Made by a program: the position numbers and the translations under genes. A DNA stretch of 64,000 bases. It comes from a virus (lineage: Duplodnaviria; Caudoviricetes). The notes beneath the pieces were generated by a model. The model did no database searches. It was not told the origin of the DNA and worked only from the letters and a program-made list of their open reading frames with translations. Positions within the stretch are counted from its first letter, which is position 1, and every line of letters starts with the position of its first letter. The DNA is taken from the IMG/VR virus record IMGVR_UViG_3300033073_000243, positions 1-64,000 of that record; one strand, given 5' to 3'. Below are positions 1,508-54,079 of the stretch, one piece after another.

Positions 1508-2254
1508 ATGATTTTATTAGAAGGTGGTAATGTATTTGCCAATGCCACGCCATTCGATCATAAAGATGTACCTGCTATACTGAACACAGTGAATTCAGCT
1601 TTAGAAGGTACTGGTATTACTGTTATACCGGTCGGTAGTGCCGCAAGTCCACGCCCTGGTAAGAAAAGCGGCGACATGGATGTATTAGCAGACGAAGCTT
1701 CTGTAATGAGTTTCTTCAAAGCTAAAGATGCCAAAACTGCTCGCAAAGCATTAAATGATTATATACATGCCAAAGGTTTAGAAACAGCACAAACGGGCAT
1801 CAATGTGCATGTTAATGTTCCGGTAGGCGGAGAACATCATCAAGTTGATATTATGGTAACTGCCAACGCAGGTCAAGTTGCTAAATTCCATACACATAAT
1901 ATTCCACAAGGTAGCCCTTACAAAGGTGTAAACAAACAATTACTAATGGCTTTCTTAGCCAAGGATAAAGGTTATATGTGGTCTGCATGGCAAGGATTAT
2001 TTGCTCGTGATGCTAACGGCAAGAAAGCAGACTTTGTAACAGATGATTTAGATAAAATTGCAGGCATTTTAGTTGGTAAAGAAGATGCTAGTGTATTAGG
2101 TAGCGTTGAAAGTATACTAGCTGCATTACCGCCAGATCAAGCAAAAGAATTATTAGCTCGTGGTAAGGCAGATCCTAATTGGAAAGAAGTATCGCAAGAA
2201 AGTTATCGCGTCGGGACAAACGAATGGTTCCGTAATATGTTGAACAAGTTATGA
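1508..2254 (+). CDS. Pol-beta-superfamily nucleotidyltransferase-like protein
   Basis: VGSAASPRPGKKSGDMDV fits the GS...SGD.D NTase signature, with a later third Asp (HHQVDIM). Confidence 0.55.
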   Translation: MILLEGGNVFANATPFDHKDVPAILNTVNSALEGTGITVIPVGSAASPRPGKKSGDMDVLADEASVMSFFKAKDAKTARKALNDYIHAKGLETAQTGINVHVNVPVGGEHHQVDIMVTANAGQVAKFHTHNIPQGSPYKGVNKQLLMAFLAKDKGYMWSAWQGLFARDANGKKADFVTDDLDKIAGILVGKEDASVLGSVESILAALPPDQAKELLARGKADPNWKEVSQESYRVGTNEWFRNMLNKL

Positions 2255-3117
2255 AAATAAACGAATTCCAATTAGACGAAATCGAACGCCTACGCCCAAG
2301 TGGATTTGAAGGCGGCAAAGAACATTTGAGTGGAGAATACGCAGCCGGTAAAATAGTTAAAAAGTTACCAGGCGGTAGTGGACTGTTATATTCCATTCAG
2401 AATGACAGCGGTGATATCAAGATTAGATTGTGGGATCCAAACAAAGGGGAATACCAACCTACACAAGAACCCAAGAAACAATCATGGCATAATAATAGAG
2501 AACATCAACAAAGAATTAGATGGTGGGAAGAAAGAAACGAAAGACTTAAGGCTGAGTTTGAAAAAGCTCCTGGCAAATTAATAGGCGAGTTAAATGTCGG
2601 CAAACCCTATGGTTTTCCACTAAAAAATGCGTTACAAGTTAACACTATCACTGTAGATGAAGATTACCGCGGTGTAGGTCTCGGTAAAGCATTGTATGGC
2701 ATTGTTCTTACTATCCTAAAGCGACCATTACTTGCGGGTTCTAGTCAAACACCCGGTGGTAGAAGAAATTGGGTAAGCCTAGCAAGTATTCCTGGTGTAG
2801 AAATGAAGGGTTATATTGCTGTAGACGACCTTGATTTGCAATCTATGGACACGAGTAAACTGGATCGTCGATATGATGATATAGCTTGGGTAAAGAGAAC
2901 TAACAAACAAGTAGAACAGAGAATCGATACTATCATGGGCAAGCTCGGTGGACAGTATATAGGCAGGGCCGATAATCGAGAATTTTTTGCCTTCGATGTT
3001 AGGCCCGATACAACAAAACAAGAATTGAAAGCACATGTAGATACTACTTTAACTAAAGTGTATGGTAGCTATAACTCCAGCGTTGGTTTATACGCAACTT
3101 GGACGGGACAAGCATGA
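2251..3117 (+). CDS. GNAT-family acetyltransferase with CTS-like leader
   Basis: QVNTITVDEDYRGVGLGKALYG is the acetyl-CoA-binding motif A (V...YRGxGxG); ATGA overlap with the upstream gene. Confidence 0.7.
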   Translation: MKINEFQLDEIERLRPSGFEGGKEHLSGEYAAGKIVKKLPGGSGLLYSIQNDSGDIKIRLWDPNKGEYQPTQEPKKQSWHNNREHQQRIRWWEERNERLKAEFEKAPGKLIGELNVGKPYGFPLKNALQVNTITVDEDYRGVGLGKALYGIVLTILKRPLLAGSSQTPGGRRNWVSLASIPGVEMKGYIAVDDLDLQSMDTSKLDRRYDDIAWVKRTNKQVEQRIDTIMGKLGGQYIGRADNREFFAFDVRPDTTKQELKAHVDTTLTKVYGSYNSSVGLYATWTGQA

Positions 3118-3662
3118 AAATAGTAGAATTATTAGAGGACGTCAAACAAGCATTGCATTTTGCCACACAGGCACATGCAGGGCAAACTCGTAGCGGTGGC
3201 GAGCCATACATCGGCCACCCTGTTAGAGTTGCACAGACTATTCGAAAATATAAACAGAGTCACAACATTGATGCCTTAATAGCTGCCGCTTACTTACATG
3301 ATACCATAGAAGATACAGACACTACCCATGAAGCATTGCATGACTTGTTTGGCGGATTGGTTGCTAGTCTGGTATTGGAACTTACTAGCGACTTAGAAGA
3401 AATTAAAAAAGTTGGTAAGAAAGAATACCTTGCTAAGAAGATGGCACACGATATGAGCAGCTATGGATTGGTTATTAAATTAGCAGACAGATTAGACAAT
3501 GTACAAGATATTGCAACTGCTAAGTCACCAGAATGGCGAGCACGATACAAAGCAGAAACAGAACATATACTCGACTATATTGAAAAGCATAGAGTGCTAT
3601 CTGGTACGCATCAACGTCTAATCGGTTTAATAAGAGATAAGTTAAACGAGATACCGGCATGA
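3114..3662 (+). CDS. RelA/SpoT-type HD hydrolase (small alarmone hydrolase, Mesh1-like)
   Basis: AHAGQTRSGGEPYIGHP, AAYLHDTIEDT, LELT and KLADRLDN motifs are all intact; true start is ATG 3114 (ATGA overlap). Confidence 0.85.
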   Translation: MKIVELLEDVKQALHFATQAHAGQTRSGGEPYIGHPVRVAQTIRKYKQSHNIDALIAAAYLHDTIEDTDTTHEALHDLFGGLVASLVLELTSDLEEIKKVGKKEYLAKKMAHDMSSYGLVIKLADRLDNVQDIATAKSPEWRARYKAETEHILDYIEKHRVLSGTHQRLIGLIRDKLNEIPA

Positions 3663-4213
3663 GATACTTAGAGATTATACAAGAATTCCAACTCCCAAAA
3701 AATTCGTGGGAGTTACTCATTTCCAATGCCGATAAAGAAGAGGCCGGAGATGAGCTTGTAAATCTCGTACAAACCGCGTATACTAATACACCTGACGGAA
3801 GTTTTGTTAATAGTATCCGTGATGTTATTCCTAGCGATTGGAATGTTATCGATTGGGATCAAGATCCTGATGTAGATAGTTGTGTATTTTACAGAAAAGC
3901 AAGAAACAACGAATCGTGGGTTGGATATAAAATACAAGGTATTGGACATGATGGTACAAAAACAAGTAAAGATAAAGCTATTACTAAAGTTCAATCAATG
4001 TTAACAAAGCCAGGCGTATGGATAGAATCTAGTGATGCTATGCGTCACATACTTAAGAAATTAAATGTTCCTTCGGTAGAAGATTTAAAAACATTACAGG
4101 CATTATTCAACGATCCTTTCTTAGAAAAATTTGATAATGACACTTACGACAGGCGTCTACCTAGCGGCAAAGTCGTAAGGGAAACAGTATTTGGGAATCC
4201 TAAACTAAAATGA
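3659..4213 (+). CDS. Hypothetical protein with CTS-like leader
   Basis: Coupled ORF (ATGA overlaps at both ends), starts MRYLEIIQE; no family recognised. Confidence 0.75.
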   Translation: MRYLEIIQEFQLPKNSWELLISNADKEEAGDELVNLVQTAYTNTPDGSFVNSIRDVIPSDWNVIDWDQDPDVDSCVFYRKARNNESWVGYKIQGIGHDGTKTSKDKAITKVQSMLTKPGVWIESSDAMRHILKKLNVPSVEDLKTLQALFNDPFLEKFDNDTYDRRLPSGKVVRETVFGNPKLK

Positions 4214-5349
4214 GATTACTAGAATTAAAAGAAGCCGCAGATCCTAAACTAGGTCGTGCATTTAACCACTTAGAGGATTTAGTTTTCTTCTATGGTACTA
4301 AGGGCACGATCGAAGCTCTTGAGCATTTAAAAGATATGAACACTGAGCAAGGCAGCGGTAGTGTTCGTATGAAATGGGACGGCAATCCTCAAATCTATTG
4401 GGGCAGAGAAAACGGACAAATCATTCCTCCACACGGACATGCTCAGTGGGGTCGTGCTAATTTGCCACAAACAGGCAAAGATGTAGCAGACTACATTATG
4501 GCAACAGGCAAAGCAACTACTCCAGAAGAGATTGCAAGTCGTCAACAGTTTGCAGACAAGTTTGCAAGTCTTGCAGATTTATTTGCAGCCGCAACTCCAG
4601 AAACATTAGATGGTAACAGTACATATTATGTCTATGCTGATGCATTATTTTTAAACAAACCAGAACTAGTAGATGGCGTTTACACATTCTGTCCTAACCC
4701 TAAAAGTCAAACTTGCTATCATGTAAAAGCTGATAGTGAATTAGGAGAACGCATCAAACATGCCGAAGTTATGGTTGTTGGTCATGCTTATTTTACAGCA
4801 CACGGACAGCCCGACAGCGCCCAGATTCCTATTAAAGACTTTAGTCAGTTTAACACAAACCCTAAACTAATTGTACTCGGTCCTATCTATAATGTTGCAC
4901 CTGTTGCTATAGATACAACAATGATAGATCAAGTCGAGGAACATATTAAACGTCATGCTCATAATGTTGATACTTTCTTAAATGGTACGGCAGGATTAAG
5001 TGACTTAAAACAAATCATATACACTTATGTCAATCAAAGTGCTAAGGCAAAACAGTTAGATAGTTTAAGTGCAGATCATTTCTTCCAATGGGCGGCGACA
5101 AAAGTCTCTGTGCCAAAGCAGGAGAAAATAAAACAGTTAAATAGTATGAACAACAATGCGTTGGAAGAGATATTTAAAATTGTAAGAGCGATTCAAATAT
5201 TAAAAGACAATGTCATTGACCAGATCGAAGCAGGACCTAAAGCAGACATTTGGGACACACATGGAGAAGGTCGTGTGCGTTATGCAGATACAAATAAACA
5301 ATTCGGTAATGTTAAGTTCGTTCCGAGAAAGCGTTGGACACCACAATGA
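4210..5349 (+). CDS. DUF6267-like protein (ligase-type KxDG nucleotidyltransferase fold)
   Basis: NHLEDLV...MKWDGNPQIYWG resembles the T4-like phage family found beside cytidylyltransferases; KWDG matches ligase motif I. Confidence 0.55.
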   Translation: MRLLELKEAADPKLGRAFNHLEDLVFFYGTKGTIEALEHLKDMNTEQGSGSVRMKWDGNPQIYWGRENGQIIPPHGHAQWGRANLPQTGKDVADYIMATGKATTPEEIASRQQFADKFASLADLFAAATPETLDGNSTYYVYADALFLNKPELVDGVYTFCPNPKSQTCYHVKADSELGERIKHAEVMVVGHAYFTAHGQPDSAQIPIKDFSQFNTNPKLIVLGPIYNVAPVAIDTTMIDQVEEHIKRHAHNVDTFLNGTAGLSDLKQIIYTYVNQSAKAKQLDSLSADHFFQWAATKVSVPKQEKIKQLNSMNNNALEEIFKIVRAIQILKDNVIDQIEAGPKADIWDTHGEGRVRYADTNKQFGNVKFVPRKRWTPQ

Positions 5350-6485
5350 AAATTAGACAATTATTAAAAGAAGCCGCTGGCGTTACTGCCGCATTTGCAT
5401 TTGGTCGTTTTAATCCAGCTCATCAAGGTCATATTGCCGTTTGGAAAACAGTTCAGAACGCAGGTGTTAAATGGTACATTGGTACTAACCCAACAACACA
5501 CGGACCAAATGACCCACTAACATTCGATCAGAAAACAGCGTGGATGGAAGCAATCTATCCTGCTATTGCCGGACATATTGAACCTGCTAACAGTGTTTTA
5601 TTTTTAGCCGCAAAGATTTATCAAGACTTGGGCGGTAATCAAGACTCTACAGTAGCTTATATTACAGATGAAACAGACTGGGCGTGGAGTGGTAAACTAT
5701 TAAATCAATACAATGGTGTTGAAGGTGCTCATGGATTCTATAAGTTTTCACAAATCGTTCATGTGCCTAGTCCACGAGTAAGTAGTGCAACAGCATTGCG
5801 TGATGCGGCTCGTGCAGATGACAAAGTTGCTTTCTATCATGCTAGCGGTACTGATCCTAAATTAAAAATTGCAGGTAAAACTTATTTTGATACTGTGCGT
5901 GAAGCTTGTTTAGGTGCAGATGCAAACAAAGCATCTAAGCGTAAACCTAAAGCAGAAAGCGTAGAAGAAGCAAGTCTTGCAACTATGCGTGATTATTTTG
6001 CAGGAAATAAAAATGCGGAAGATGAATTAAAGATAACTCAAATTCGTAAGCATTACGAAAAAGAAATTCCCCCAAATTCTAAAATTCAGAAAAAAGAATT
6101 CAGAAGCCATCATGACTATGACAAATGGTTAGAAAAGAATGGTTTAAGTAAAGTCGGTGGTAATCTAAAAGAGGTGGCTCCTCCTGGTATGGAACAATGG
6201 ATTAAAGATCGTAAGTCTGAGTTTAAAAAGCGTTACGGTGATCGTTGGCAAGAAGTTCTGTATGCCACAGCGTGGAAACAACATAACAACGAAAGCGTAG
6301 AAGGTATCGAAAATCAATCGTCAGAAGAGCTTTTAGAATACTTACGCAAGATACATAAGCGATGGGCCTTAGTAAGTAAAGGCGAAGGTAAACCTTTAGT
6401 TTATTACAAAGGCGAAGGTAAACCAAGTAAAGAATGGGTCAAGAAGCAAGAGCGTCGTATAGGTTACTTTAAACACAAAAAATGA
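5346..6485 (+). CDS. HxGH cytidylyl/adenylyltransferase-like domain plus C-terminal small modules
   Basis: FGRFNPAHQGH (HxGH) and RVSSATALR motifs; C-terminal third is split by SVEEA, LKEVA and SVEGI; true start 5346. Confidence 0.7.
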   Translation: MKIRQLLKEAAGVTAAFAFGRFNPAHQGHIAVWKTVQNAGVKWYIGTNPTTHGPNDPLTFDQKTAWMEAIYPAIAGHIEPANSVLFLAAKIYQDLGGNQDSTVAYITDETDWAWSGKLLNQYNGVEGAHGFYKFSQIVHVPSPRVSSATALRDAARADDKVAFYHASGTDPKLKIAGKTYFDTVREACLGADANKASKRKPKAESVEEASLATMRDYFAGNKNAEDELKITQIRKHYEKEIPPNSKIQKKEFRSHHDYDKWLEKNGLSKVGGNLKEVAPPGMEQWIKDRKSEFKKRYGDRWQEVLYATAWKQHNNESVEGIENQSSEELLEYLRKIHKRWALVSKGEGKPLVYYKGEGKPSKEWVKKQERRIGYFKHKK

Positions 6486-8695
6486 AATACAAAGAAATAT
6501 TTGAACAAATCATCAACGAAATTAATATGAGTCCGGCTGGTCTTCGTAGTCTAGTGGCCGATATTAATGCTCAAGCAGGTATGGAATTTGAAATGATTGT
6601 TCCGGGTGCGGCGGAAAGTGCCAGCAGTGATGATTACTTAGAACCAGATTACGATTCTAACGAAAGTACTCGCAGCTTTAGACAAATTCGCGATTTCTTC
6701 CATGATGGTGATTACAATGGACGCAGAGATGTAGAACGCTTGGAACAACGACTACTAGACGATTATATGGACAGCGATTTCTTAAGTGAAAAGAAACAAG
6801 AAGCATGGGGAGAAGCTTCCTATGATGCTGTTAGAGATTTAGTTGACAGAGATTATGCAGACGACTTGAGAGATCAAGCAACTGACGAAATTTCTGCTAA
6901 GACGCCAGAATTTGGTGTTAACGGTGATGAGTTCCAAGAAGCAGTTTTAGAGCGTTACAATGAATTAGTTCAGGAAAAAATTGACGACATTCTAGCTAAC
7001 ATGGGTAGCGAGTATGATGAAGCTTATGAGGAATGGGAACAAAACGAATGGCAAGATATATGGAATGACTTCGACTTACAAGAAGAATGGCTAGAACATG
7101 AAGGTCTAGAAACTATGAGTGATGTTGCCGATAATTACGATATCACATGGCCTTACTATTACAATCCAAACGATGGCGGCGGAGAAGTCAGTGTAGACGA
7201 TGCGGCAGACAGTTTTAGTCGTGCTATGGGTAAGCCAGTAAATGCCAGTTCCAGTTATCATGGTGCTCGCAGAGAAGCAGGGCATTATGTTGTAGAACCC
7301 GACGGCAGTTTAGAAGCAGACGATGATGAAGACGGTGGTTTAGAGTTTGTTAGTCCGCCTATGCCCATCAATGAGTTACTTGACGACCTAAAGAAAGTTA
7401 AAGCATGGGCAGACAAAACCGGATGCTATACAAATGACAGCACAGGTTTGCATATTAACGTCAGCGTTCCTGGATGGCAAGGCGATGTTGCTAAATTAGA
7501 CTATGTTAAACTTGCAATATTATTAGGCGACGAATATATCTTAAACGAATTCGGTCGCCAAGGTAATACATATTGTAAGAGTGCTTTGAAGATTGTCAAA
7601 GACAATATTACACAACGTCCAGAAGATGTAAAGCTATTACTAGATAAAATGCGTGAACATTTAAACACAAGCGCATCTAAATTGATACATAGCGGTGCCA
7701 CAAGCAAGTATACAAGTATCAATACCAAGACAGGTTACATTGAATTCCGCAGTCCAGGCGGCGATTGGTTAAACGAAAACTTTGACAAAATTGAAAATAC
7801 GCTTTATCGTTTTGTTGTTGCTATGGATGCTGCCGTAGATGAAACAAAATACAAACAAGAATATGCCAAGAAACTTTATAAGCTATTGTCTGGTAATGAG
7901 AAAGACAACACAAACACATTAACTTATTTTGCACAATATGCCGCAGGAGAATTACCACAAAGCGCATTAAAGAGTTTTATTAAACAGGCACAATTAGAGC
8001 GTAAAGTAAAGAAAGATCCAACAAGTGGACAGAAATATTGGTGGAGTGTTGGGCTAAGGTCTAATCCAAATTACAGAATTGAAGTAGTTGGTGCTAGTAA
8101 GGCGGAAGCCATTTCTGCCGCTATGGACAGTAACACCGATTTAATGAGATATAACGCTGACACCGACTTTACTGCAAAACCAATTCGTCCATTTGATGAT
8201 AGCTCAGTAAAGGCTACAGTAGGTGAACCACAACCTGCAGGTGGTTATAGGAACGCACTAAGTCAAACTGACATAGAAAATAGATTAGGTTGGGGTGGTC
8301 AAGAGGCAGATGCCAACTACGAAGTTGTAGATCGTAGCAATAATCGATCTGTATTTAAATTTATTGCTAATACTCCGCAAGAAGCACAGAGAAAATATGG
8401 ACAGGTTCTCGATGTATTTGGATTCCCGCATGATACAGAGAACTATGGCTTTAGGGAAATTGCTTTACCAGGGTCAACATTAGATTTACAACGTCAAAGA
8501 GTTGCCGCGGGTGATTTTACGGGCCAATGGAAAGTAATGATTGACGGCGAGGAAGTATACAGATTTGGTGGCGCCGGTAACAGCCAAGGCGATGCTAACA
8601 GAATCGCCCGAGAATGGATCAGACAACAAATATCAAGAGGAACTCTAAACCCAGCAGATAATGCAGATATAACTGTTGTACCAGTAATGAATTGA
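6482..8695 (+). CDS. Putative amidoligase (COOH-NH2 ligase type 2) with acidic insertion
   Basis: GMEFEM, GLEFVSPP, TNDSTGLHINVS, KYTSIN and IEFRSPGG are the conserved amidoligase-2 motifs; long D/E-rich insert. Confidence 0.7.
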   Translation: MKYKEIFEQIINEINMSPAGLRSLVADINAQAGMEFEMIVPGAAESASSDDYLEPDYDSNESTRSFRQIRDFFHDGDYNGRRDVERLEQRLLDDYMDSDFLSEKKQEAWGEASYDAVRDLVDRDYADDLRDQATDEISAKTPEFGVNGDEFQEAVLERYNELVQEKIDDILANMGSEYDEAYEEWEQNEWQDIWNDFDLQEEWLEHEGLETMSDVADNYDITWPYYYNPNDGGGEVSVDDAADSFSRAMGKPVNASSSYHGARREAGHYVVEPDGSLEADDDEDGGLEFVSPPMPINELLDDLKKVKAWADKTGCYTNDSTGLHINVSVPGWQGDVAKLDYVKLAILLGDEYILNEFGRQGNTYCKSALKIVKDNITQRPEDVKLLLDKMREHLNTSASKLIHSGATSKYTSINTKTGYIEFRSPGGDWLNENFDKIENTLYRFVVAMDAAVDETKYKQEYAKKLYKLLSGNEKDNTNTLTYFAQYAAGELPQSALKSFIKQAQLERKVKKDPTSGQKYWWSVGLRSNPNYRIEVVGASKAEAISAAMDSNTDLMRYNADTDFTAKPIRPFDDSSVKATVGEPQPAGGYRNALSQTDIENRLGWGGQEADANYEVVDRSNNRSVFKFIANTPQEAQRKYGQVLDVFGFPHDTENYGFREIALPGSTLDLQRQRVAAGDFTGQWKVMIDGEEVYRFGGAGNSQGDANRIAREWIRQQISRGTLNPADNADITVVPVMN

Positions 8696-8705
8696 GGATA
8701 ATACA

Positions 8706-8882
8706 ATGAGATTAAATGAATTAACAACAGACAAGTTAGCAAAATATAAAACGGCAGCGGCTGCTGATGCAAGTGCTGCTGATAAAGAAGGCGACTACAA
8801 ACGCGGCGATAAGCGTTTTAGTGGAATTATAAAAGCAACAAAAAAACAATTCGACAATGATGCTAAAAAGAATAAATCTTAA
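8706..8882 (+). CDS. 58-aa protein with CTS-like leader (not in ORF track)
   Basis: GAGGA RBS; MRLNELTTDKLAKYKTAAAADASAADKEGDYKRGDKRFSGIIKATKKQFDNDAKKNKS*. Confidence 0.8.
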   Translation: MRLNELTTDKLAKYKTAAAADASAADKEGDYKRGDKRFSGIIKATKKQFDNDAKKNKS

Positions 8883-9054
8883 ACGAGTATTTGTATTAAT
8901 TGCAACTCATGCGGCAGTATTTGCCGTTGGTGTTTACTATGGGTTAGAAGTATATGAAGCCTACATTAATGACCAATTTATTGTAGTGCCTAACGATGTT
9001 AACCGACAAGCACCATTTAAAGAATTTAAAGGTACAAAATATACAACGGTATGA
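8857..9054 (+). CDS. Possible small membrane protein
   Basis: One hydrophobic helix (VFVLIATHAAVFAVGVYYGL) and an ATGA overlap with the GH19 gene, but it overlaps the upstream ORF by 26 nt. Confidence 0.35.
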   Translation: MMLKRINLKRVFVLIATHAAVFAVGVYYGLEVYEAYINDQFIVVPNDVNRQAPFKEFKGTKYTTV

Positions 9055-9737
9055 AAGTTTCCGAGATAATATTAGAACAAGAATTAGATGAAGGTTGGAA
9101 AGACTGGGTAGCAGGCGCGGCTATGGGCGCAGCCGCATTAGGAGCAACTCCTGCAACTGCTAAACCAATGCCAATGCCAACGCAACAAGTATCTCAACAA
9201 TCATACAGTCCAGAAGAAAATAAAATTATTAAAACGATTTTACATCCTGCTGCCAAAATTTTAATTAAAACAGCTCGCGAAGCAGGATTAAATGGTGCAG
9301 AGCTTGCACAGTTTGTAGCTCAATGTGCTCATGAAACTTCTAACTTTACAAGCTTGAAAGAGTTCGGAGGTAAGTTAGATTTTAAAAAATATGACCCTGT
9401 ACACAATCCTCGCAAAGCAAAAATATTAGGTAACAAGAAAGCAGGCGATGGTGCTCGCTATCATGGCCGAGGATATATTCAACTAACAGGCCGAGACAAT
9501 TATAAAAGGGCAGGAGAAGCGTTAGGACTTCCGTTGGAAAAGCATCCTGAACTTGTAGAGAAACCCGAAGTGGCTGCTAAGGTTGCAGTTTGGTTTTGGA
9601 AGAATCAAGTTAAACCAAAAGTAAATAACTTCCAAGATACTGCACAAGTCACAAAACCAATTAATAGCGGATTGAAGGGTCTAGAAGACAGACATAACAA
9701 ATTTGCAGCCATTATGAATTTATTAAGGAGAAGCTAA
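9051..9737 (+). CDS. GH19 chitinase/endolysin-like peptidoglycan hydrolase
   Basis: AQFVAQCAHETSNF, YHGRGYIQLTGRDNY, AVWFW and INSGLKGLEDR are GH19 phage lysin motifs. Confidence 0.85.
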   Translation: MKVSEIILEQELDEGWKDWVAGAAMGAAALGATPATAKPMPMPTQQVSQQSYSPEENKIIKTILHPAAKILIKTAREAGLNGAELAQFVAQCAHETSNFTSLKEFGGKLDFKKYDPVHNPRKAKILGNKKAGDGARYHGRGYIQLTGRDNYKRAGEALGLPLEKHPELVEKPEVAAKVAVWFWKNQVKPKVNNFQDTAQVTKPINSGLKGLEDRHNKFAAIMNLLRRS

Positions 9738-9931
9738 TGAGAGTAAAAGACATTGTAGACGAAGCGGGCTTTTCCTATAAAGGATATCCTTGTACTAAAG
9801 ATTGCAGTGGACATATGGCAGGATATGCATGGGCAGACGATAGAGATATCAGCGACGAAGATGAATGCCCGTATCGTCCTACACACCCAAGCTTCTGGGA
9901 AGGCTGTAAGAGTAAAGCAGAAGGTAAATAA
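9737..9931 (+). CDS. Small Cys-containing protein with CTS-like leader
   Basis: MRVKDIVDE leader then CTKDCSGHMAGYAWA...C...SFWEGC; TAATG coupling. Confidence 0.75.
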   Translation: MRVKDIVDEAGFSYKGYPCTKDCSGHMAGYAWADDRDISDEDECPYRPTHPSFWEGCKSKAEGK

Positions 9932-9937
9932 TTTATT

Positions 9938-11284
9938 ATGCGTTTATTAGAATTAAAATCACTTGCCGAAGCCGCACTTACTGCTGGCGAAATCACTACA
10001 TACCCTTGGAGACAAGAGCTATTCATCAATAAGATTAGAAACGGAGAGCCTTTTGAATTAACCACAGGGGAAGAAGTAACTATTGATCCTGCTGAAGCAG
10101 ACCGCTTACAAGGTATGCTGGACTCTGGTACATTCGGAGGGACTGTTAAAATTGCATTAGACGACGGTACTATGCTATCCCTAGGCAAGCTACAAAAAAC
10201 TGTGGAGTTCCAAAAAGAAGGTGGTGTTAAAGGCGAAGGCGTTTCTAATAAAGGTGACATTTCCGAAGGTATCTTATCTGCTGCATTGTTTGCTAAACTT
10301 AAAGCTCGTGTCAACAAACAAATTGGCACAGTAACTCCTGATGACATTTGGTCTGTTGTTGACAGTTTAACTAAAACAGGCAAAAACACATACACAGTTA
10401 ATGTAAAAGACGGCAAGTCTATGGTCAATGATAGTATTGTCTTTACATTAATCTTACCTCCAGAAGCTTATAGAGATTTCATCGATCCTACAAAGCGTCC
10501 ATTATTAAAAGATCAAACAGACAGTGCCGCATTGTTTGCCAACAGCGAAGACAACGAAGAATTTAGTAAGTATTTCTATCTAAACGGACGTCCTGATATT
10601 ATTAATATCATTTGCGATGGCGGTAATCCAGAGAAACAAAAGATCAGTAAGGTCGATATTGAAGTTGTTATTACAGATAAATTAACAGGTAAAGTTGATC
10701 GTCGTCGTTTAGATATTAGCTTAAAAGTTGATGCCGCACAGTTCGGCCAAGTTGGTGTTGGTAGTACTAAAGACTATGACTTCTTTGAAAAGCAAGTTTC
10801 TTTATGGAATAAGTTTGGTGTTGATGTTCGCCCTTCTCAAGAAGGTTTTGACGAAGCATACAAAAAAGGCGGATTAGTTGATGCGTTAGCTTACATATAC
10901 GAATTTGCTGCCGATGTTATTGCTACTTTATTAGCCGATGATAATAGCGAAGATGAATATATGTTTATTACAGAACTAGCAAAGGGTATTAACTACTATG
11001 CTACTTTAGGTAATCCAAACATTATCCTATTAGACTTCTCGTCAGGAGGGTATAAGATGATGCGTTTTGACGATATCGAAGGCAAGCTAAAAGGCATTAA
11101 GCTAACAGCGTCTTATAACTATGACACTAAGTTACCTCAAGTTGACATTTATGATGCTAATACAGGTAAGTTGTTTGTTAAAGTCCGTGTAAAGATTACA
11201 GCCAAAGAACGCCGTAATTATATCGAAAAAGGCCCATTAATGACTGAACTATTGGGTACTAAGGTCAAGCGATTGAAAAAATAA
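9938..11284 (+). CDS. Possible PD-(D/E)xK nuclease-fold protein with CTS-like leader
   Basis: KGDISEG (helix Glu), KVDIEV and DISLK fit a restriction-endonuclease-like core; weak by-eye match. Confidence 0.4.
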   Translation: MRLLELKSLAEAALTAGEITTYPWRQELFINKIRNGEPFELTTGEEVTIDPAEADRLQGMLDSGTFGGTVKIALDDGTMLSLGKLQKTVEFQKEGGVKGEGVSNKGDISEGILSAALFAKLKARVNKQIGTVTPDDIWSVVDSLTKTGKNTYTVNVKDGKSMVNDSIVFTLILPPEAYRDFIDPTKRPLLKDQTDSAALFANSEDNEEFSKYFYLNGRPDIINIICDGGNPEKQKISKVDIEVVITDKLTGKVDRRRLDISLKVDAAQFGQVGVGSTKDYDFFEKQVSLWNKFGVDVRPSQEGFDEAYKKGGLVDALAYIYEFAADVIATLLADDNSEDEYMFITELAKGINYYATLGNPNIILLDFSSGGYKMMRFDDIEGKLKGIKLTASYNYDTKLPQVDIYDANTGKLFVKVRVKITAKERRNYIEKGPLMTELLGTKVKRLKK

Positions 11285-11311
11285 ATCGACATAAATTCGA
11301 TAAATAACATT

Positions 11312-11509
11312 ATGAAAATTAAAGAACTTATTAGTGAAGATGCAAGTATAGGCGGTATTAGTTCCGGCGGTTTTGCTACAGCACCTGCGGGTAATATTTT
11401 TGCCGTTCCTATGAAACGCAACCAGCCGCGCAAGCGTCCTAAAAAAGAACAAAACGAATTCGCTAATAGGCGTGATAATAAGAATGTTATCGAACAGGAT
11501 TTAAAATGA
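11312..11509 (+). CDS. Small protein with CTS-like leader
   Basis: MKIKELISEDASIGGISSGG; TAAATA box 5 nt upstream of the ATG. Confidence 0.7.
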   Translation: MKIKELISEDASIGGISSGGFATAPAGNIFAVPMKRNQPRKRPKKEQNEFANRRDNKNVIEQDLK

Positions 11510-12333
11510 GCAAACAGAGAGCCCAACAATTATACAAGCTTGCCGATAGTTTACTTAAGGTAAATGTAGCCAGTTTATCTGAAGCACAAAAAGCAGAGCG
11601 TAACTCCATGGTTGCTCGTTTACAAGAAGAATTAAAAACTCTTAAAGGTATCAAAGAAGCTCCTGGCGACTTAGGTAGCCAAATCGTTTATCTATACAAC
11701 AATATATATGAACTAGGAGATGATGCAGTAGACCACTTATATAACAATGCTCCGTTATTTGCACAATATTGGGATCAATACGAAGGCGATTTGGATAGTA
11801 TTATCCAAGAAGTACCTCCACAACAATTACAAAAGATTTATGCAGAGTTAAACAAGGCAGCACAAGAAGAAGGTTTAACTGAAATGGATTCACAAGGCTA
11901 TACAGGAAGTCGTGATCGTAAGAGCTCGAGCAAGTATGGTAGCCGCGATGATTATGAATTAGGTCAACCAGAAACAACATTAGGTAAAGATTCTATTATG
12001 ACTGGTCATGAAGCTTCCAATCAAGCATTGGACGCTCTTAAAAATGCATTTGACGACGAATATGACGAAGTAGAAGAAACAACAGGTAAGTTCGATCGTA
12101 AGGAAATTGCTCCAGGTCGTACACAATACACTCGTAAGGATGACACTTATACAACAGATGGAAGCAGTGTTGCTGACTACAGAGTATTAGCTCCGGGTCG
12201 TTCTATTGAAGATGACAACGAGCGCGAATTCAATCCACGAGATGATGAAGAATATGAGTTGGAAGAAGCGATAAGTACAGAAGCTTACGACAGACTTAAA
12301 AAAGTTTTCGACTTTAGTAATTTTAAAGGTTAA
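11506..12333 (+). CDS. Acidic multi-module (polyprotein-like) protein
   Basis: Segments separated by IKEA, LTEM, VEET and LEEA motifs. Confidence 0.7.
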   Translation: MSKQRAQQLYKLADSLLKVNVASLSEAQKAERNSMVARLQEELKTLKGIKEAPGDLGSQIVYLYNNIYELGDDAVDHLYNNAPLFAQYWDQYEGDLDSIIQEVPPQQLQKIYAELNKAAQEEGLTEMDSQGYTGSRDRKSSSKYGSRDDYELGQPETTLGKDSIMTGHEASNQALDALKNAFDDEYDEVEETTGKFDRKEIAPGRTQYTRKDDTYTTDGSSVADYRVLAPGRSIEDDNEREFNPRDDEEYELEEAISTEAYDRLKKVFDFSNFKG

Positions 12334-12336
12334 TAT

Positions 12337-13698
12337 ATGAAATTATTTGAACTATTTGAGAGCCCAGTTATTGCTGGTGCAAATAACTTAAAAGCAATTG
12401 CACAAGCGGCAACTAGTGCCAGCGATGCACACATCACATTGGGCGGCGAACCAGTTACTTTAGAGTATCCTGAAGCTCGCTTTATCTATGGCTTATACAA
12501 GAAGTCATTGCAGTCTGGTACACAAGAACAATTCTTACAGATGTTAACTAACCCTGCAAGTTTTGATAGCTTAATGAAACCAATGCGTAATATGCTATAC
12601 AAAGATCGCGGTCCAGAAATGGCTCAGGCGGCTGCTACCCGTATCGGTCAACCTGGTGTAGAAGAAAGTATCGACAAACCAGTAACAGGTACAGAAACAA
12701 TGAAGCACTTAGTTCAGCGTTTCCCTAAAGAAGTTAAAGACTTTATCGCAGGTGGCGAACTAGACAGCGACTTATACGAAGCATTATTTGATTACTACAA
12801 CTTACATGGCGAAATGCCATATGGTGTAGCTAAAGCTCGTACAGGCGATCCGTTCGAATGGGTAACACAACAATTTGACCGTGATGCACAAGAATATGTA
12901 ACTGAAGCTAAACAAGCTTACAAAAAATTAATTACAGAAAGCAAGAAACAAGTTAGCGAGCGTTGGGATGACGACGATGATGACTGGTATGGTTTTAACG
13001 ACAAAACTCGTAAAGCTGCCACAGGCGGTACAGTCACACAAACAGGACGCGGTGTTATCCATAAAGGCAAATATGGTAGCGAATATCAAGGTGACGATGA
13101 GGAAGAAGATAAGAGCCCATTTGCTATTCTCAAGACTGCTAAAGTAAAAGAGCCTCGTAGTGCTGGCCGTCCAAGTGCTAACATTAAAGCAACAGACGAT
13201 GGCATTAGCGTAACATCTTACTCTAGCTGGTATCACAAATCTAAGCGTAGTCACCCAGAGCGTAAGATTGTTGGTAGTGCAGAACGAGCAGTTGCCGTTA
13301 TTCCAAAAGGCAAAAAGTTTGCAGTTGTCGGTTCGTGGGATGGAGCTAAAGGCTTAATCAATGCTAAGGCAGGTGAAGTTGTTACAGTTGACCAACTAAA
13401 AGATTATAAATCTGGTCGCGGACGTCCAACTACACGAAAAGAAAGTGCAAGTTATCGCAATCGTGCTTTGCGTGAATGGATCGAACAATTAGTAGTTGTT
13501 TCAGAAGGCAAGAACCATATGGGCGAAACTGAATACAATACTTACAGCGGATGGAGAGCAGCTTGTAAAAGAGCAGGTGCTAACGAATTCGACGGAGATC
13601 GTGACATTTGCCAAGCTAAGAAGGACGGCAAAGGCGTAGGTGAATGGGACGGCGTAAGTGGTTCCGTTTATGATGACGCACATAAGAAAGCACAGTAA
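12337..13698 (+). CDS. Multi-module (polyprotein-like) protein with CTS-like leader
   Basis: MKLFELFES leader; internal VEES, VTEA, ITES, VSER and VSEG sites delimit compositionally distinct segments. Confidence 0.75.
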   Translation: MKLFELFESPVIAGANNLKAIAQAATSASDAHITLGGEPVTLEYPEARFIYGLYKKSLQSGTQEQFLQMLTNPASFDSLMKPMRNMLYKDRGPEMAQAAATRIGQPGVEESIDKPVTGTETMKHLVQRFPKEVKDFIAGGELDSDLYEALFDYYNLHGEMPYGVAKARTGDPFEWVTQQFDRDAQEYVTEAKQAYKKLITESKKQVSERWDDDDDDWYGFNDKTRKAATGGTVTQTGRGVIHKGKYGSEYQGDDEEEDKSPFAILKTAKVKEPRSAGRPSANIKATDDGISVTSYSSWYHKSKRSHPERKIVGSAERAVAVIPKGKKFAVVGSWDGAKGLINAKAGEVVTVDQLKDYKSGRGRPTTRKESASYRNRALREWIEQLVVVSEGKNHMGETEYNTYSGWRAACKRAGANEFDGDRDICQAKKDGKGVGEWDGVSGSVYDDAHKKAQ

Positions 13699-16139
13699 TG
13701 CGTTTAAATCAAATAACAGAAGGCCTAGCTGACGAATTTGCAGCTATGGCAAGAGCCAAAGGCATGAATCCACGGATTCATGGTACTCCTGAACAAGAGC
13801 GTGAGCGCACACGCCAGGCTCTTGCCCAACGAGATGCAGAAAGAGCAGAAGCACAGAAACGCGATACTGAAAATGATATTGCTCAACTTCCGGAATTAAA
13901 AGCTCAATATGATAAAATGAAGAGCGAATACGAATCACTAGGCGGAAGTAACTGGCAATATGCAGATCGCGAACAAAACTTATCCGATGGAGAACGCAAG
14001 GCTCGTTCAATGGAGCCCGAGTTAAATAACCTCTGGAGAAGAATATCTCGTGCCGAAAAGGCACAAGGTGTAAGCGAAGCAGGACCAACACGTCGTGGTT
14101 TTTTACAAAGCATTGGTGCAGCAGGTTTAACTGCGGCTGGTGTTGCATCTGCTAAAGGTGGCGGCGGTGGTGGAGGTCACGGCGGTGGTGGAGGACATGC
14201 TAGCTCTGGCGGTCATGCTAGTTCAGGTGGCAAAGGAGGTGGTGGTAAAGGTGCTAGTGCAGGAGCCAGAGGAGCGATGCACGGTGAACCATCTGCTAGA
14301 TTCGTACCTGGTCAACCATATGTTCCAATAACAGGTCATCATGTTGAACAAGGTGCTGGCAACGATGCTAATAAACAAGAATACATCAAGTTCCTAACAA
14401 GTTATGCTAATGCTATTCGTGCAGGTAAGATGACTCCTGAAATGCGTAAGTGGTTGAACAACCATCCTGAAGTCATCGAGGACTTGAAGCGTGGTAAGTA
14501 TGGATTGACTATGGGTCAACTTAATGCTGACTTGGTAGACATTGAATCTCGCAAGAATTATCACATGATGCGTGAAGGTGTATCTACGACATGGGAAGTT
14601 AGTTATGATTACGGTCCACATATGACTAAGACCGTTACGGTCAAAGCTAAATCAGAAGAAGAGGCTGCGGCTAAAGTAGAAAAGGCCGCAGAGAAAAAAG
14701 GCCTCAACATAATGATAAACTCTGTAACACCAGTAGAGCAAGGTGTGGTGGAAGGCGATGATCGCGGTAATTATCACAGCATTGCTAGAGCCGCAAACCA
14801 AGCAAGTAGAACAGCAAAGTCTAAACAAGATCACGCCAAGGCTGCTGACTTACACGACCGCGCCGCGACATATGGTCTATCAGCGGGCCAAGACCAATCT
14901 GTAATTCGTGACCATCAAATGGCAGCATGGGAACACAATCGTGCTAGTAAAAAAATGAAGGAAGATGTGGCGGAGGGCATAAATGACAAACCCGAAACAG
15001 GTGACAAGATTGTTTGGTATCATAGCAATCATTATCCTAAACTTGAAGGTGAAGTTGTTGGTTGGAAAGACGGGCATCTAATTGTTAAATCAATTGACCC
15101 TAGCCCTAGAAATACAGAAAAGACCGTAGCAACATATCGTGTGCCTAAGAATAATATAATGAGTGTCGAAAAGCAAGGTGTGGCGGAAGACCAATTAGAC
15201 GAAGCCAAGATTGCTTCAACTGAAGATGAAGATTTCTTTCATAAAGGAAAGAAAGTTGGTAGCATAACAAAAATCACTCTAAAAGATGGTATGGTATTTT
15301 ACCGTGCAACCGCAGGAAATTCTCATATTTCCGGTTCAGATACCCGTCAAGAAGCATTAAGAGATTTGAAAGAACTCTTGCGTAGAGAAAAAGAGGAAGG
15401 TGTGGCGGAAGGCTCGGATAACATCACTGCTGTATTTTCTGGTTATGGAAATTATATGAAAGGTCGTGCTGCCAATGTATTCAAACATTACGGTATTACC
15501 GTATTAGACCAACAATATGATGAAGATGAAGATATCGCAGAATATACAGTTAGCGGCAGTAAAGAGGCATTGGATCAAGCAAGAGCATACTTGGAACGCA
15601 GTGACCAATTTGGTGGCATGATCCTAAAGCAAGGTGTGGAGGAGGCAGAAAATGTAAGTCATTTACACAAAGCCTTAGACCGTGCTTTGAGTAAAGAAAA
15701 GAAAGCAAGCCCTGCACAAGTTCAACGCAACAAAGAGCGTTGGGCACAGCGTCAAGCAGAAAAGAATAAAGAAGTAGACGAAGGTGTAGCAACATCAATG
15801 CCAATGCAAGATGCTGTAAAATTATTGCGTCAGTATGGTGCAGATAACTTTAAAACAACTACAAACGAATTACATTTTTATAAAAACGGTCGAGCATTTA
15901 GTGTTGATTTGGTAATGAATCCAGATACTACTCGCAGTGTAACTTTAAGCAGTTTAAATGCAGCCACTCGTGGATTAAAAGGTAACAGTGCTTTACGTCA
16001 AGCGATTGAATCCATCGATGCAAACCAAAAACGAGTAGGTCAAGTTCCAGGCGAAGAGAAAGCTAAAAAGATCGGACAAGTACTTGCTAAACCTCCTAAG
16101 CAACATCCTTTTAAGGGACGCTTAGTAGGCGGTGAATAA
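13698..16139 (+). CDS. 813-aa modular polyprotein with repeated QGVAEG-type linkers
   Basis: Linkers ITEG, QGVSEA, MREG, QGVVEG, EDVAEG, QGVAED-QLDEA, EGVAEG, QGVEEA, VDEG and AIES separate about 10 unrelated modules of 40-165 aa. Confidence 0.8.
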   Translation: MRLNQITEGLADEFAAMARAKGMNPRIHGTPEQERERTRQALAQRDAERAEAQKRDTENDIAQLPELKAQYDKMKSEYESLGGSNWQYADREQNLSDGERKARSMEPELNNLWRRISRAEKAQGVSEAGPTRRGFLQSIGAAGLTAAGVASAKGGGGGGGHGGGGGHASSGGHASSGGKGGGGKGASAGARGAMHGEPSARFVPGQPYVPITGHHVEQGAGNDANKQEYIKFLTSYANAIRAGKMTPEMRKWLNNHPEVIEDLKRGKYGLTMGQLNADLVDIESRKNYHMMREGVSTTWEVSYDYGPHMTKTVTVKAKSEEEAAAKVEKAAEKKGLNIMINSVTPVEQGVVEGDDRGNYHSIARAANQASRTAKSKQDHAKAADLHDRAATYGLSAGQDQSVIRDHQMAAWEHNRASKKMKEDVAEGINDKPETGDKIVWYHSNHYPKLEGEVVGWKDGHLIVKSIDPSPRNTEKTVATYRVPKNNIMSVEKQGVAEDQLDEAKIASTEDEDFFHKGKKVGSITKITLKDGMVFYRATAGNSHISGSDTRQEALRDLKELLRREKEEGVAEGSDNITAVFSGYGNYMKGRAANVFKHYGITVLDQQYDEDEDIAEYTVSGSKEALDQARAYLERSDQFGGMILKQGVEEAENVSHLHKALDRALSKEKKASPAQVQRNKERWAQRQAEKNKEVDEGVATSMPMQDAVKLLRQYGADNFKTTTNELHFYKNGRAFSVDLVMNPDTTRSVTLSSLNAATRGLKGNSALRQAIESIDANQKRVGQVPGEEKAKKIGQVLAKPPKQHPFKGRLVGGE
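14064..15647 (+). repeat. Dispersed in-frame 18-bp linker repeat, consensus cAAGGTGTGGcGGAaGgc (6 copies)
   Basis: 14064 caaggtgtaagcgaagca; 14739 caaggtgtggtggaaggc; 14961 gaagatgtggcggagggc; 15174 caaggtgtggcggaagac; 15396 gaaggtgtggcggaaggc; 15630 caaggtgtggaggaggca. All are in frame with ATG 13698. Confidence 0.85.
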
Positions 16140-16197: not shown

Positions 16198-16638
16198 ATG
16201 GATGAATTAATACAAGCACTGAAAAAAGTTTTAGGCAATCACTATGCGTATGCATTGAAAGCACAAAACTTTCACTGGAACGTCGAAGGACCAGACTTTA
16301 GTCAATACCACGCACTATTTGCTACAATTTATGATGAAGTATATGGCAGTGTAGATACTATCGCCGAACGAGTCAGAACGCTAGGTGCTTATGCTCCTGG
16401 TAGTTTCAGTCGTTTTGCACAACTATCTGAAATCGAAGATCAAGTTGAAGTTCCTAATGCACTATCTATGATTCAAAAACTTCTTGCAGATATAAGTATT
16501 GTACAAGCAAGTATTAAGGCATGTTATGATCTTGCCGAAATAAATGGCAATCACGGACTAAGTAATTTAATGGCGGACAGACAAGATGCATTTGCAAAAC
16601 ATGCATGGATGCTAACTGCTACATTAAAAAATAGATAA
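16198..16638 (+). CDS. dps: Dps (DNA-binding ferritin-like protein)
   Basis: KAQNFHWNVEGPDFSQYHALF...DTIAERVRTLG...KHAWML are the Dps ferroxidase signature motifs. Confidence 0.92.
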   Translation: MDELIQALKKVLGNHYAYALKAQNFHWNVEGPDFSQYHALFATIYDEVYGSVDTIAERVRTLGAYAPGSFSRFAQLSEIEDQVEVPNALSMIQKLLADISIVQASIKACYDLAEINGNHGLSNLMADRQDAFAKHAWMLTATLKNR

Positions 16639-16883
16639 TGCATCAATCGTTAAAAGAATTAGTTAAAGTCAAACTAACTAAAAACCAAATCCTCGCACTC
16701 GAGTCTTTTATACAAGATAGGGGCGAGGAAATTTTCAAAAACAGTAACTTACTCAAAGTCATCAACAAAGGTGATTTTGATTTGGTACCTGCTGAGTTAT
16801 CCAAATGGATTATCGATAGTGGACGAGTTCGCCCTGAGCTCGAAGAGATGCGTAAAAAAGAAATCGCATTGTTTACCGAATAA
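16638..16883 (+). CDS. Truncated GH24 lysozyme-like protein (C-lobe only)
   Basis: VKVKLTKNQILALESF...NSNLLKVINKGDF...ELSKW...RKKEIALF aligns by eye to the C-terminal half of phage lysozymes; the catalytic N-lobe is absent; TAATG-coupled to dps. Confidence 0.6.
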   Translation: MHQSLKELVKVKLTKNQILALESFIQDRGEEIFKNSNLLKVINKGDFDLVPAELSKWIIDSGRVRPELEEMRKKEIALFTE

Positions 16884-20974: not shown

Positions 20975-21213
20975 TGGATAATATTCAGGAACAAATACTT
21001 GCAGAGCTTAAAAAGCAAAACGAGTATTTTGAGAAAATGGACTGGAAGCTTTGGATGCTTCAAAATATGATTAAGGCTATTGCCGAAGAGAATGGTTATA
21101 CATTTGATATCGAAGAAAACACAGCAACAGTCGAAACATATGAAGAGCCAGTAGAGCGCACAACTTCTGATCTCAAACCTAAATATGATGATAGTAATTG
21201 GAGTTTAGAATGA
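20974..21213 (+). CDS. Hypothetical protein
   Basis: TAATG-coupled 79-aa ORF. Confidence 0.65.
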   Translation: MDNIQEQILAELKKQNEYFEKMDWKLWMLQNMIKAIAEENGYTFDIEENTATVETYEEPVERTTSDLKPKYDDSNWSLE

Positions 21214-21587
21214 CCAAAAAAATGATATGGGTTACTTTCCAAAAGGAAGGTATTCACAAGTATCCAGCGGCATTAACTGATCCTAACTTAGCTACAGGCG
21301 ACGAATACGATGTTAGCTTTTTAGGATATCCGCATCGTCATATATTTCATTTCAAAGTAGCAATTGAAGTGTTTCATGATGATCGTGACATTGAATTTAT
21401 TCAATTTAAACGCTGGCTAGAAAACTTATACAAAGAAGCAACATTAACTCTTGACTACAAGAGTTGCGAAATGATTGCAGAAGATGTATATAATCAAATT
21501 AACGCAAGATATCCTAATAGGGATGTCTGGATTGATGTAAGTGAGGATAATGAAAATGGATGCCACATTCAATTTAACAAAGGGTAA
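21210..21587 (+). CDS. QueD-like T-fold protein, DpdL-type
   Basis: EGIH...LGYPHRHIF...RDIEF...SCEMIA gives three His Zn ligands and a C-terminal Glu as in PTPS/QueD. It has LxxxHRHxF instead of QueD CxxxHGH, which I recall as the DpdL signature. Confidence 0.65.
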   Translation: MTKKMIWVTFQKEGIHKYPAALTDPNLATGDEYDVSFLGYPHRHIFHFKVAIEVFHDDRDIEFIQFKRWLENLYKEATLTLDYKSCEMIAEDVYNQINARYPNRDVWIDVSEDNENGCHIQFNKG

Positions 21588-21597
21588 AGTTCGCACT

Positions 21598-21954
21598 ATG
21601 AACCAATACCATAACAATGTTAGTCGTGCGATGATTCACATCAACGACATTAAGTATGACCTACTAAAGATTGCAGAAATGTATGACGGCATTCTGCAAG
21701 AAGGCTTAGGTCATTTGGCAGCAGATATGTTCCAAGCATATCTAAGTGACCTCCGTGGTAATGAATGGATTCATGACTACGAAGTTACTGAAATTGTTCT
21801 TAAAGAACAAAGCTATACTTACGATGTAAGTATTCAAATTACTAAGGATCGTACTCCTAAGAAACTAAAGATCCACGTCGGTCTTTACAAGAGTGCGTGG
21901 CCGGAGTTGGCTGCTACTATGAAATATACAGGCAGCGGATATGTCTCTAAGTAA
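21598..21954 (+). CDS. Hypothetical protein
   Basis: ORF between the QueD-like and DpdA-like genes; likely start ATG 21598. Confidence 0.6.
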   Translation: MNQYHNNVSRAMIHINDIKYDLLKIAEMYDGILQEGLGHLAADMFQAYLSDLRGNEWIHDYEVTEIVLKEQSYTYDVSIQITKDRTPKKLKIHVGLYKSAWPELAATMKYTGSGYVSK

Positions 21955-25270: not shown

Positions 25271-25775
25271 TACAGTTGAAAGAAAAGCGGCAACATACTT
25301 CATCGGCACAGAAGTAGAACATACAGCAATGTACAATGAAAAAACTTTGTTTGTTGTAGGAGTTCGTCCTGTTGATGAAGTCGCGAAACATGCTAGACAG
25401 CATAACATTCGTCATTTATACTTTGGCACAAGTCAAAGTTTCCATCCTAAAACAAATGAAGAGTGGGCAGAGTGGAATAACATGATTACTCCACTACTAC
25501 AAGAAGGCTTCTGGGTTACATTAGACTTTGGTGTAGAATATGCAGATACTTTGCATGAAGAAGGATGGTGCGAGTTTAATACTTTTATTCCTATGATTAG
25601 TGTTAAGCTTCCTTACATTAAGTTATACAACTATAATGCAACTCTTAAGATTGACGACACCACATGGGGTCACAGTAATCCAGGAGTATGGTGTCATAGT
25701 TTACATGACTTAATGGATCGTAAAGTTTACACCGACTGGAAAGACTATGTAGGAGACGAACCAGTAAATGGCTAA
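25260..25775 (+). CDS. Hypothetical protein within the modification cluster
   Basis: 171-aa coupled ORF with conserved-looking YFIGTEVEH, HLYFG and GVWCH motifs. Confidence 0.7.
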   Translation: MALDTVERKAATYFIGTEVEHTAMYNEKTLFVVGVRPVDEVAKHARQHNIRHLYFGTSQSFHPKTNEEWAEWNNMITPLLQEGFWVTLDFGVEYADTLHEEGWCEFNTFIPMISVKLPYIKLYNYNATLKIDDTTWGHSNPGVWCHSLHDLMDRKVYTDWKDYVGDEPVNG

Positions 25776-27678: not shown

Positions 27679-27681
27679 AGA

Positions 27682-28488: not shown

Positions 28489-28500
28489 TAGTTGTATAAT
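28471..28500 (+). promoter_or_regulatory. Sigma70-type promoter upstream of folE with embedded TAAATA box
   Basis: TTGACT(28471)-N18-TATAAT(28495); TAAATA at 28482. Confidence 0.55.
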
Positions 28501-28542
28501 CTAAATACATTTGTGACCCACCACATTAACTCGGAGAAAAAA

Positions 28543-30450: not shown

Positions 30451-30451
30451 A

Positions 30452-30930: not shown

Positions 30931-30931
30931 C

Positions 30932-32194: not shown

Positions 32195-32196
32195 TA

Positions 32197-54014: not shown

Positions 54015-54037
54015 GTGAAATTTATTAAGTTAGTAGA

Positions 54038-54047: not shown

Positions 54048-54079
54048 TTAGTAACAACCATGAAGCATAGGAGACAAGC

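Follow-up and report, generated by a model that had tools for sequence, protein, structure and literature searches.

A shuffled cassette polyprotein in an uncultured T4-type phage, joined at a repeated in-frame DNA site and probably destined for the phage head

The window considered here, positions 1 to 64,000 of the IMG/VR virus record IMGVR_UViG_3300033073_000243, belongs to an 85-kb contig that represents a fragment (22% complete) of the genome of an uncultured T4-type phage of about 350 kb. Its DNA polymerase is closest, among cultured phages, to those of Sinorhizobium phage Phosso (50%) and Agrobacterium phage Atu_ph07 (46.5%), and near-identical pieces of the contig turn up in aquatic and wastewater metagenomes; no RNA holder of the sequence was among the matches listed. 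Our subject is a gene for a polyprotein of 813 amino acids (aa), an open reading frame (ORF) already pointed out in an earlier, sequence-only reading of this DNA and confirmed here at its full extent. It is the last member of a cluster of genes that begin with a short leader, and the genes flanking its array of modules are cargo genes, Dps, a lysozyme-like gene and the DNA polymerase. Sequence searches of Pfam, PHROGs and the PDB with the whole protein and with each module gave nothing above the cut-off, the one PDB match of the polyprotein being confined to its Gly-rich stretch and set aside.

The sequence-only reading had described the product as about ten unrelated mini-domains, every one of them bounded by a linker of the form (Q/E)GVxE. 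Ten modules are indeed delimited by homology boundaries and AlphaFold (Table 1), and five copies of the motif [QE]GVxE are present (aa 123, 348, 493, 567 and 645) where 0.055 would be expected; 20,000 shuffles never gave more than two. With EDVAEG (aa 422-427) as a sixth, linkers of the QGVAEG type stand at six of the nine internal joints. The joints M2/M3 (MRE293), M8/M9 (VDE695) and M9/M10 (AIE771) carry an x-x-E motif alone, so that the description of each module as bounded by the full linker was overstated. In two AlphaFold models (predicted template modelling score 0.30 and 0.33) the small domains stand apart, connected by low-confidence linkers, and the folds guessed earlier largely hold for M1-M9. 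The folds assigned to M3, M7 and M9 are best taken as leads only. For M3, the fold search also returned weak matches to phage RNA-polymerase-inhibitor entries (E 0.03-0.05); the predicted M7 structure resembles ACT domains with template modelling (TM) scores of 0.68-0.80 (Z up to 10.1, root-mean-square deviation 1.8, 70 residues aligned). The HicA-like M9 model lacks the G-S-H motif of HicA and has T-N-E-L at the equivalent place, and it gave no match to PF07927 or any other Pfam entry and no alignment to the HicA-bearing protein P0084.

Table 1 Features of the polyprotein gene and of the cluster in front of it
Feature	Position	Strand	Description and basis
Cassette polyprotein gene, 813 aa	13698..16139	+	ORF confirmed; linker repeats; homology
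8-aa leader ending I-T-E	13698..13721	+	Apparently capsid-targeting-sequence-like; resembles T4 capsid-targeting sequence (PMC9026906)
M1, aa 9-127, helical hairpin	13722..14078	+	Belongs to the conserved frame of the locus; also present in other host genes
Degenerate linker site QGVSE/A	14064..14080	+	5 mismatches to DNA consensus
M2, aa 128-293	14079..14576	+	Starts right after the cut motif with a twin-arginine signal-like stretch; then a spacer rich in Gly/His and a helical domain
M3, aa 294-352, small beta-beta-alpha-beta domain	14577..14753	+	Predicted fold like PurS/eL20 (Z 7.5)
Linker DNA site QGVVE/G	14739..14755	+	DNA site match
M4, aa 353-426, Ala/His-rich helical hairpin	14754..14975	+	Homology, model
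Linker DNA site EDVAE/G	14961..14977	+	DNA site match
M5, aa 427-497, five-strand all-beta (SH3/KOW-like)	14976..15188	+	Homology, model
Linker DNA site QGVAE/D, then second cut motif LDE502	15174..15190	+	DNA site match
M6, aa 503-571, three strands and a helix	15204..15410	+	Homology, model
Linker DNA site EGVAE/G	15396..15412	+	Exact 16-mer match
M7, aa 572-649, ACT/ferredoxin fold	15411..15644	+	Predicted structure
Linker DNA site QGVEE/A	15630..15646	+	DNA site match
M8, aa 650-695, basic two-helix module	15645..15782	+	Homology, model
M9, aa 696-762, HicA-like alpha-beta3-alpha fold	15783..15983	+	Predicted models, TM 0.68 against a cluster of viral HicA
M10, aa 772-813, basic terminal peptide	16011..16136	+	Homology
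Upstream leader-bearing cluster, putative head-cargo operon	2251..13698	+	GNAT, HD hydrolase, DUF6267, cytidylyltransferase-like, amidoligase-like, GH19, unknowns
Neighbouring 275-aa gene	11506..12333	+	Same cassettes taken up by orthologues (152-523 aa, with linkers); the DNA site is missing from this copy

The polyprotein is modular, and its modules are shuffled among related phages. Colinear homologues of identical content would have spoken against a cassette-like protein, and comparison of module order and content across relatives gave the opposite picture: none of the 113 homologues shares more than pieces of the query (mostly 6-22% of it, the best pieces reaching 96% identity), and they carry single modules, or pairs in other orders, within many host genes, their differing ends forming 62 C-terminal clusters. 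M10, for example, is found in other phages (P0198, P0199, P0205, P0208) as a mini-gene with the leader directly in front. At two orthologous loci both flanks are colinear at 57-85% (DNA polymerase 84%, Dps 77-80%) and the arrays differ, what the polyproteins have in common being M1, M10 and, in changed order, no more than one or two of the internal modules. Sets of alleles with near-identical ends differ by entire cassettes, with the breakpoints at the linker. Contigs from the same habitats hold the joints M2-M7, M5-M3, M8-M6, M8-M7 and M9-M7; at 85% likeness these may stem from other phages in the sample, and we therefore take them only as evidence of other module neighbours. A head-to-tail joint of a single cassette, as a circle would give, was not among the joints listed, which come from contigs only. 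Overall, 203 families account for the 341 cassettes; of 415 neighbouring sites, 385 share a frame that stays open between them, and the modules are under purifying selection (ratio of nonsynonymous to synonymous substitution rates about 0.1-0.3, with 1-10 copies each). In three proteins, P0042 (aa 423-507 and 835-919), P0011 and P0013, one cassette occurs twice at 64-90% identity, which indicates that such duplicates were gained from different sources or have been kept for long.

One feature goes beyond the sequence-only reading: the conservation of the linker extends to its DNA, and cassettes cross over at it. A 15-bp core, AAGGTGTGGCGGAAG, stands at many of the joints as a direct repeat, is read in the QGVAEG frame and flanks cassettes of 45-130 codons. 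Five copies lie within three mismatches of the 16-mer AAGGTGTGGCGGAAGG, against 0.24 expected in the window, and the exact 16-mer is present on more than 120 viral contigs. All but one of 135 perfect sites (134) are read in the QGVAEG frame (about zero in the reversed control). Rare codons are kept in 110 linkers selected by peptide and not by seed, with GCG at 84% (background 8%), GTG at 73% (19%) and GGT at 94% (44%), figures that lean towards site-using phages, since the loci were first found with the DNA seed. Where the two members of a pair have a cassette in common on one side alone, upstream or downstream, homology switches at the edges of the core (positions 2-16) with no sharp point inside it; these pairs are not independent of one another. 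Filled and empty sites can be compared directly between the loci L126 and L128, which are 95-100% identical: in the cytidylyltransferase-like gene a 207-bp cassette between two perfect copies of the site stands against a single copy, and the polyprotein gene differs by double cassettes of 663 and 633 bp. The pair L124 and L125 shows filled and empty sites of the same kind. The well-matching sites are all in direct orientation on the coding strand, those with one to three mismatches are common, and the site is not palindromic, no inverted repeat having been found at the sites. Two other roles for the DNA were considered and are not favoured: a G-quadruplex of four GG pairs, since the fourth pair is present in 111 of 193 sites and its last base moves with the downstream cassette, and a Chi-like hotspot, since the site is confined to cargo genes and not spread over genomes.

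As for the engine that moves the cassettes, we lean towards general recombination of the UvsX type, with short homology as in T4; the repeat would stay fixed because a cassette that lacks a matching copy could not move. RecA/UvsX is encoded in all four larger records, and the M9 cassette lacks its usual 3' linker here, being joined to the C-terminal segment of the host gene at a 5-bp match, AAAGG. This joint, the tolerance of mismatches and the missing fixed crossover point all favour short-homology recombination. One could instead suppose that the same cargo polyprotein is served by a dedicated, unrecognised site-specific recombinase of phage or host that reads the 15-bp site, in the manner of an intragenic integron. 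Such an enzyme would explain why silent positions are fixed at rare codons in many phages, at loci of 30-66% guanine-cytosine content, why the core has sharp edges, why filled and empty sites correspond exactly, and why the sites, present at several loci, all keep to the coding strand; the fixed silent positions do leave room for a site-reading protein. We nevertheless consider it unlikely, given the non-palindromic, mismatch-tolerant site without a fixed crossover point and an M9 joint that arose at a partial match. In addition, no PF00589 match to a tyrosine recombinase was obtained in nine, possibly incomplete, records, and no serine recombinase, reverse transcriptase or IS110 enzyme in the carrier records searched (a weak IS110-like match proved to be a ROK kinase). 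These absences carry little weight, because the carrier records are incomplete in head modules too: even in G001 and G005, with completeness ratings of 99-100%, gp23 or the protease is missing.

Beyond its role as DNA, the linker appears to behave as a protease site, with hydrophobic-x-E, a cut motif of the T4 gp21 type, seemingly under selection at the protein level. In 193 imperfect sites selected on their DNA only, changes at the E codon are synonymous in 26 cases and replace the residue in 5, and the V position is hydrophobic in 191 sites, compared with 55, 28 and 37 replacements at Q, G and A. The motif is depleted inside 215 cassettes (60 observed, 124 expected) and stands 1.21-fold above expectation in the ordinary genes of the window. 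Twin-arginine (Tat) signals act at an N-terminus, and all 11 Tat-like motifs begin within 1-5 residues after a hydrophobic-x-E, either of the leader or of an internal joint; eight of them come from loci, the others from P0004, P0014 and the present protein. A leader of this kind is found in 80 of 111 homologues, and a hydrophobic-x-E lies within the first 14 aa of 12 of the 14 genes at 2251-13698, as opposed to 15 of 74 elsewhere. In T4, the capsid-targeting sequence is a leader of 10 residues that gp21 removes at L/I-X-E (PMC9026906), and the 8-aa leader ending in ITE agrees with this pattern. A gp21-type (S77) protease is encoded in four carrier genomes (G002, G004, G007, G010), of which G002 has a DNA polymerase 59% identical to that of the present phage; gp23 is matched in five of eight carriers, and the capsid protein of one carrier starts with a short leader ending in L-L-E. 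Together, leader motif, selection, depletion, Tat placement and the gp21-type protease of the carriers lend good indirect support to capsid targeting and cleavage by the head protease. As a separate observation, an acidic 278-aa protein with many hydrophobic-x-E motifs, like T4 core gp67/gp68, is encoded at L130:607-1443, upstream of a carrier's gp21-type prohead protease (L130:1447-2079).

We consider it likely that the gene encodes a head-cargo polyprotein with an in-frame cassette array and dual-coded joints. Crossover within the 15-bp repeat inserts, deletes, duplicates and reorders cassettes with the frame kept intact, both within one gene and between different leader-bearing genes; UvsX-type recombination would act, possibly via small circles as for PeSL cassettes. 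At the protein level, which we hold with considerable confidence, the leader would direct the precursor into the prohead, a gp21-type protease would cut after E in V-x-E and other x-x-E motifs, and about ten separate proteins of 5-17 kDa would be injected along with the DNA.

Several observations weigh against this interpretation. The polyprotein was absent from the cultured phages searched, and all sequences behind the analysis are metagenomic. Head genes are not on the incomplete 85-kb contig, so that the link to the protease is drawn from other carriers. Four hydrophobic-x-E motifs lie within modules (aa 66, 261, 559 and 615), and the P3 residue is here mostly V, as against the L/I documented for T4. 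Fifteen base pairs are short for general homologous recombination, and silent positions fixed across many phages may need a site-reading protein. None of the ten modules matches a known anti-defence or defence family in Pfam or PHROGs, nor did 150 other cassette families give an anti-defence match, in a search that would miss small novel proteins, and PADLOC found no defence-system match in 61 homologues.

The weakest part concerns what the injected proteins would do. That they form an accessory arsenal against the host early in infection, acting in counter-defence, in control of stress and translation or, by Tat export, at the envelope, is a view on which we are evenly divided. Of 150 cassette families compared with Pfam, seven match a Pfam family, including the Tat signal, RMF and GNAT, and HicA is present in two homologues. 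It could also be that the pieces are packaged and cut and yet are mostly structural filler, such as core- or scaffold-like fragments and DNA-condensing basic peptides, or passengers spread by the site with no target in the host. T4 core proteins are indeed cut into many fragments (PMC9026906), the cassettes lean basic (100 of 203 with a net charge of at least +3, M8 and M10 being short basic peptides), and 143 of the 150 families have no Pfam match; however, folded, diverse domains under purifying selection, cassettes with Tat signals or of HicA, GNAT or RMF-like type that imply action in the host cell, and a high turnover that fits an arms race make filler quite unlikely. At the other extreme, one could speculate that aquatic T4-type giant phages own a dedicated cassette system, in which an unrecognised enzyme reads a 15-bp site that is at the same time the code for the protease cut, and whatever fragment is captured is packaged, cut and injected, the families, numbering in the hundreds, making up a shared library of new takeover and anti-defence mini-proteins; we put this forward tentatively, as possible and on the whole improbable.

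Alternatively, the chain might never be cut, the modules remaining as beads on a string and the linker being a recombination scar, or an internal translation start at GTG, whose peptide has no protease role. The system is known from sequences and its cleavage is deduced, and the V codon is mostly G/A/T-T-G, all of them start codons; yet no residue is more constrained than E, cassettes avoid hydrophobic-x-E in their interior, internal Tat signals would be senseless in an uncut chain, 33 synonymous changes destroy the start codon, and no properly spaced ribosome-binding site is present, so we regard an uncut protein as highly improbable. Chimeric assembly at a short repeat, suggested by purely metagenomic data and by assembly graphs that break inside the array, can practically be dismissed, since assemblers usually work with words longer than 15 bp, independent samples yield the arrays again (P0052 on five contigs, P0066 on three), frames stay open, duplicated cassettes in one gene differ by 10%, and an independent-looking contig (from run X1, maybe the source sample) spans two joints at 15128-15426 with no differences.

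A literature search on the motif, on phage cargo polyproteins and on in-frame cassettes, confined to papers available without subscription, found nothing relevant. We compared the locus with systems that share some of its traits. Integrons hold arrays of unrelated small cassettes in variable order, drawn from a large shared pool, and to this extent they resemble the present arrays, which differ in having no IntI near the array, no attC hairpin and in-frame modules without start or stop. The shufflon of R64 uses short, asymmetric, in-frame sites inside a gene, as here, and Rci inversions pick one C-terminus; the sites described here are direct repeats with insertions and deletions, and no Rci-type enzyme was found. 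With neither IntI nor attC, and with sites in direct orientation, the locus is thus neither integron nor shufflon. In MARTX and Rhs/CdiA, effector domains are swapped by recombination at conserved junctions and freed by proteolysis, a likeness that extends to the present case if cleavage occurs; these are, however, secreted bacterial toxins with a built-in protease, Rhs/CdiA swap a single C-terminal domain, and there is neither sequence relation nor a repeated codon-locked site. The loci for internal proteins (IPs) of T-even phages reportedly vary in the number and order of IP genes, as Repoila et al. are said to have found in 1994.

The nearest parallels are in T4-type phages themselves. IPI, IPII, IPIII and Alt of T4, of which IPI is an injected anti-restriction protein, likewise have a short N-terminal leader ending in hydrophobic-x-E and are small, variable cargo, and they are processed by gp21, a protease type that carrier genomes of the present system encode (PMC9026906). 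They are separate genes with a leader each and yield one mature protein per gene, whereas here about ten unrelated modules, each mobile by itself, follow a single leader in one frame, and the presumed cut motif doubles as a DNA crossover site. The PeSL cassettes of RB49 and phi1 form mini-circles with no integrase known, and share with our loci filled and empty sites bounded by direct repeats (PMC2839356). PeSLs are intergenic early promoter/stem-loop elements that move whole genes, whereas the site here is 15 bp, in the reading frame and peptide-coding; their study leaves general recombination open, which provides a parallel for short-homology exchange. Extensive cleavage after E (S/A/G-X-E, A-X-E), at several sites per precursor, is known from head proteins of phiKZ and SPN3US, where the sites remove long propeptides and shuffled multi-module cargo is not described (PMC5694885). 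The polyprotein thus combines a leader and a putative cut like those of T4 internal proteins with exchange like that of PeSLs, yet is a member of neither class, its repeat being intragenic and coded and its one leader serving many modules.

If recombination site and protease site are one sequence, a new module can do without its own promoter, start codon and leader, which would amount to a rule by which large phages gain and try out many small injected proteins. The site gives access to a defined library that is far from saturated, with 203 families from only 341 cassettes. Its proteins are small, under purifying selection and missed by gene callers, and they lend themselves to screening in laboratory strains for anti-defence and host-takeover activity; the role of the variable internal proteins of T4-type phages, long an open question, becomes testable at scale.

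Other genes of the leader-bearing cluster show related features. The GH19 lysozyme-like gene (9051-9737) has a signal-peptide-like hydrophobic stretch directly behind a second cut motif, L-D-E (about aa 14); such stretches also sit behind linkers in L081 and L123, and the GH19 gene of P0004 and L002 has acquired extra modules. The cytidylyltransferase-like gene (5346-6485) ends in a tail of small modules split by x-x-E motifs, without the DNA site, and its orthologues in L126 and L128 hold site-bounded cassettes. A leader-bearing HD-domain protein (3114-3662) matches PF13328 HD_4 (E 3e-18), of a type like (p)ppGpp hydrolases. A leader-bearing gene of 64 aa (9737-9931) shows a G-Y...C-P-Y...W-x-G pattern like that of ribosome modulation factor (RMF), without a Pfam match; a cassette with the RMF-like pattern is also present in L158 (L158:3196-3375), and one cassette family matches PF04957 (E 4e-6). 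The HD_4 protein, the ACT-fold M7 and the RMF-like cassettes together hint at interference with the stringent response.

Downstream of the polyprotein gene, an 81-aa ORF (16638-16883) matches phage lysozyme in the C-terminal part alone (PF00959 positions 53-125) and is kept at the same size in L001 and L002. The region 21210-33832, where QueD-like, TGT/DpdA-like, FolE and QueE genes lie among sugar oxidoreductase, glycosyltransferase and cytidylyltransferase genes, is a candidate DNA modification locus, and a long minus-strand series of radical-SAM-like and tailoring enzymes occupies 48084-64000 and continues beyond.

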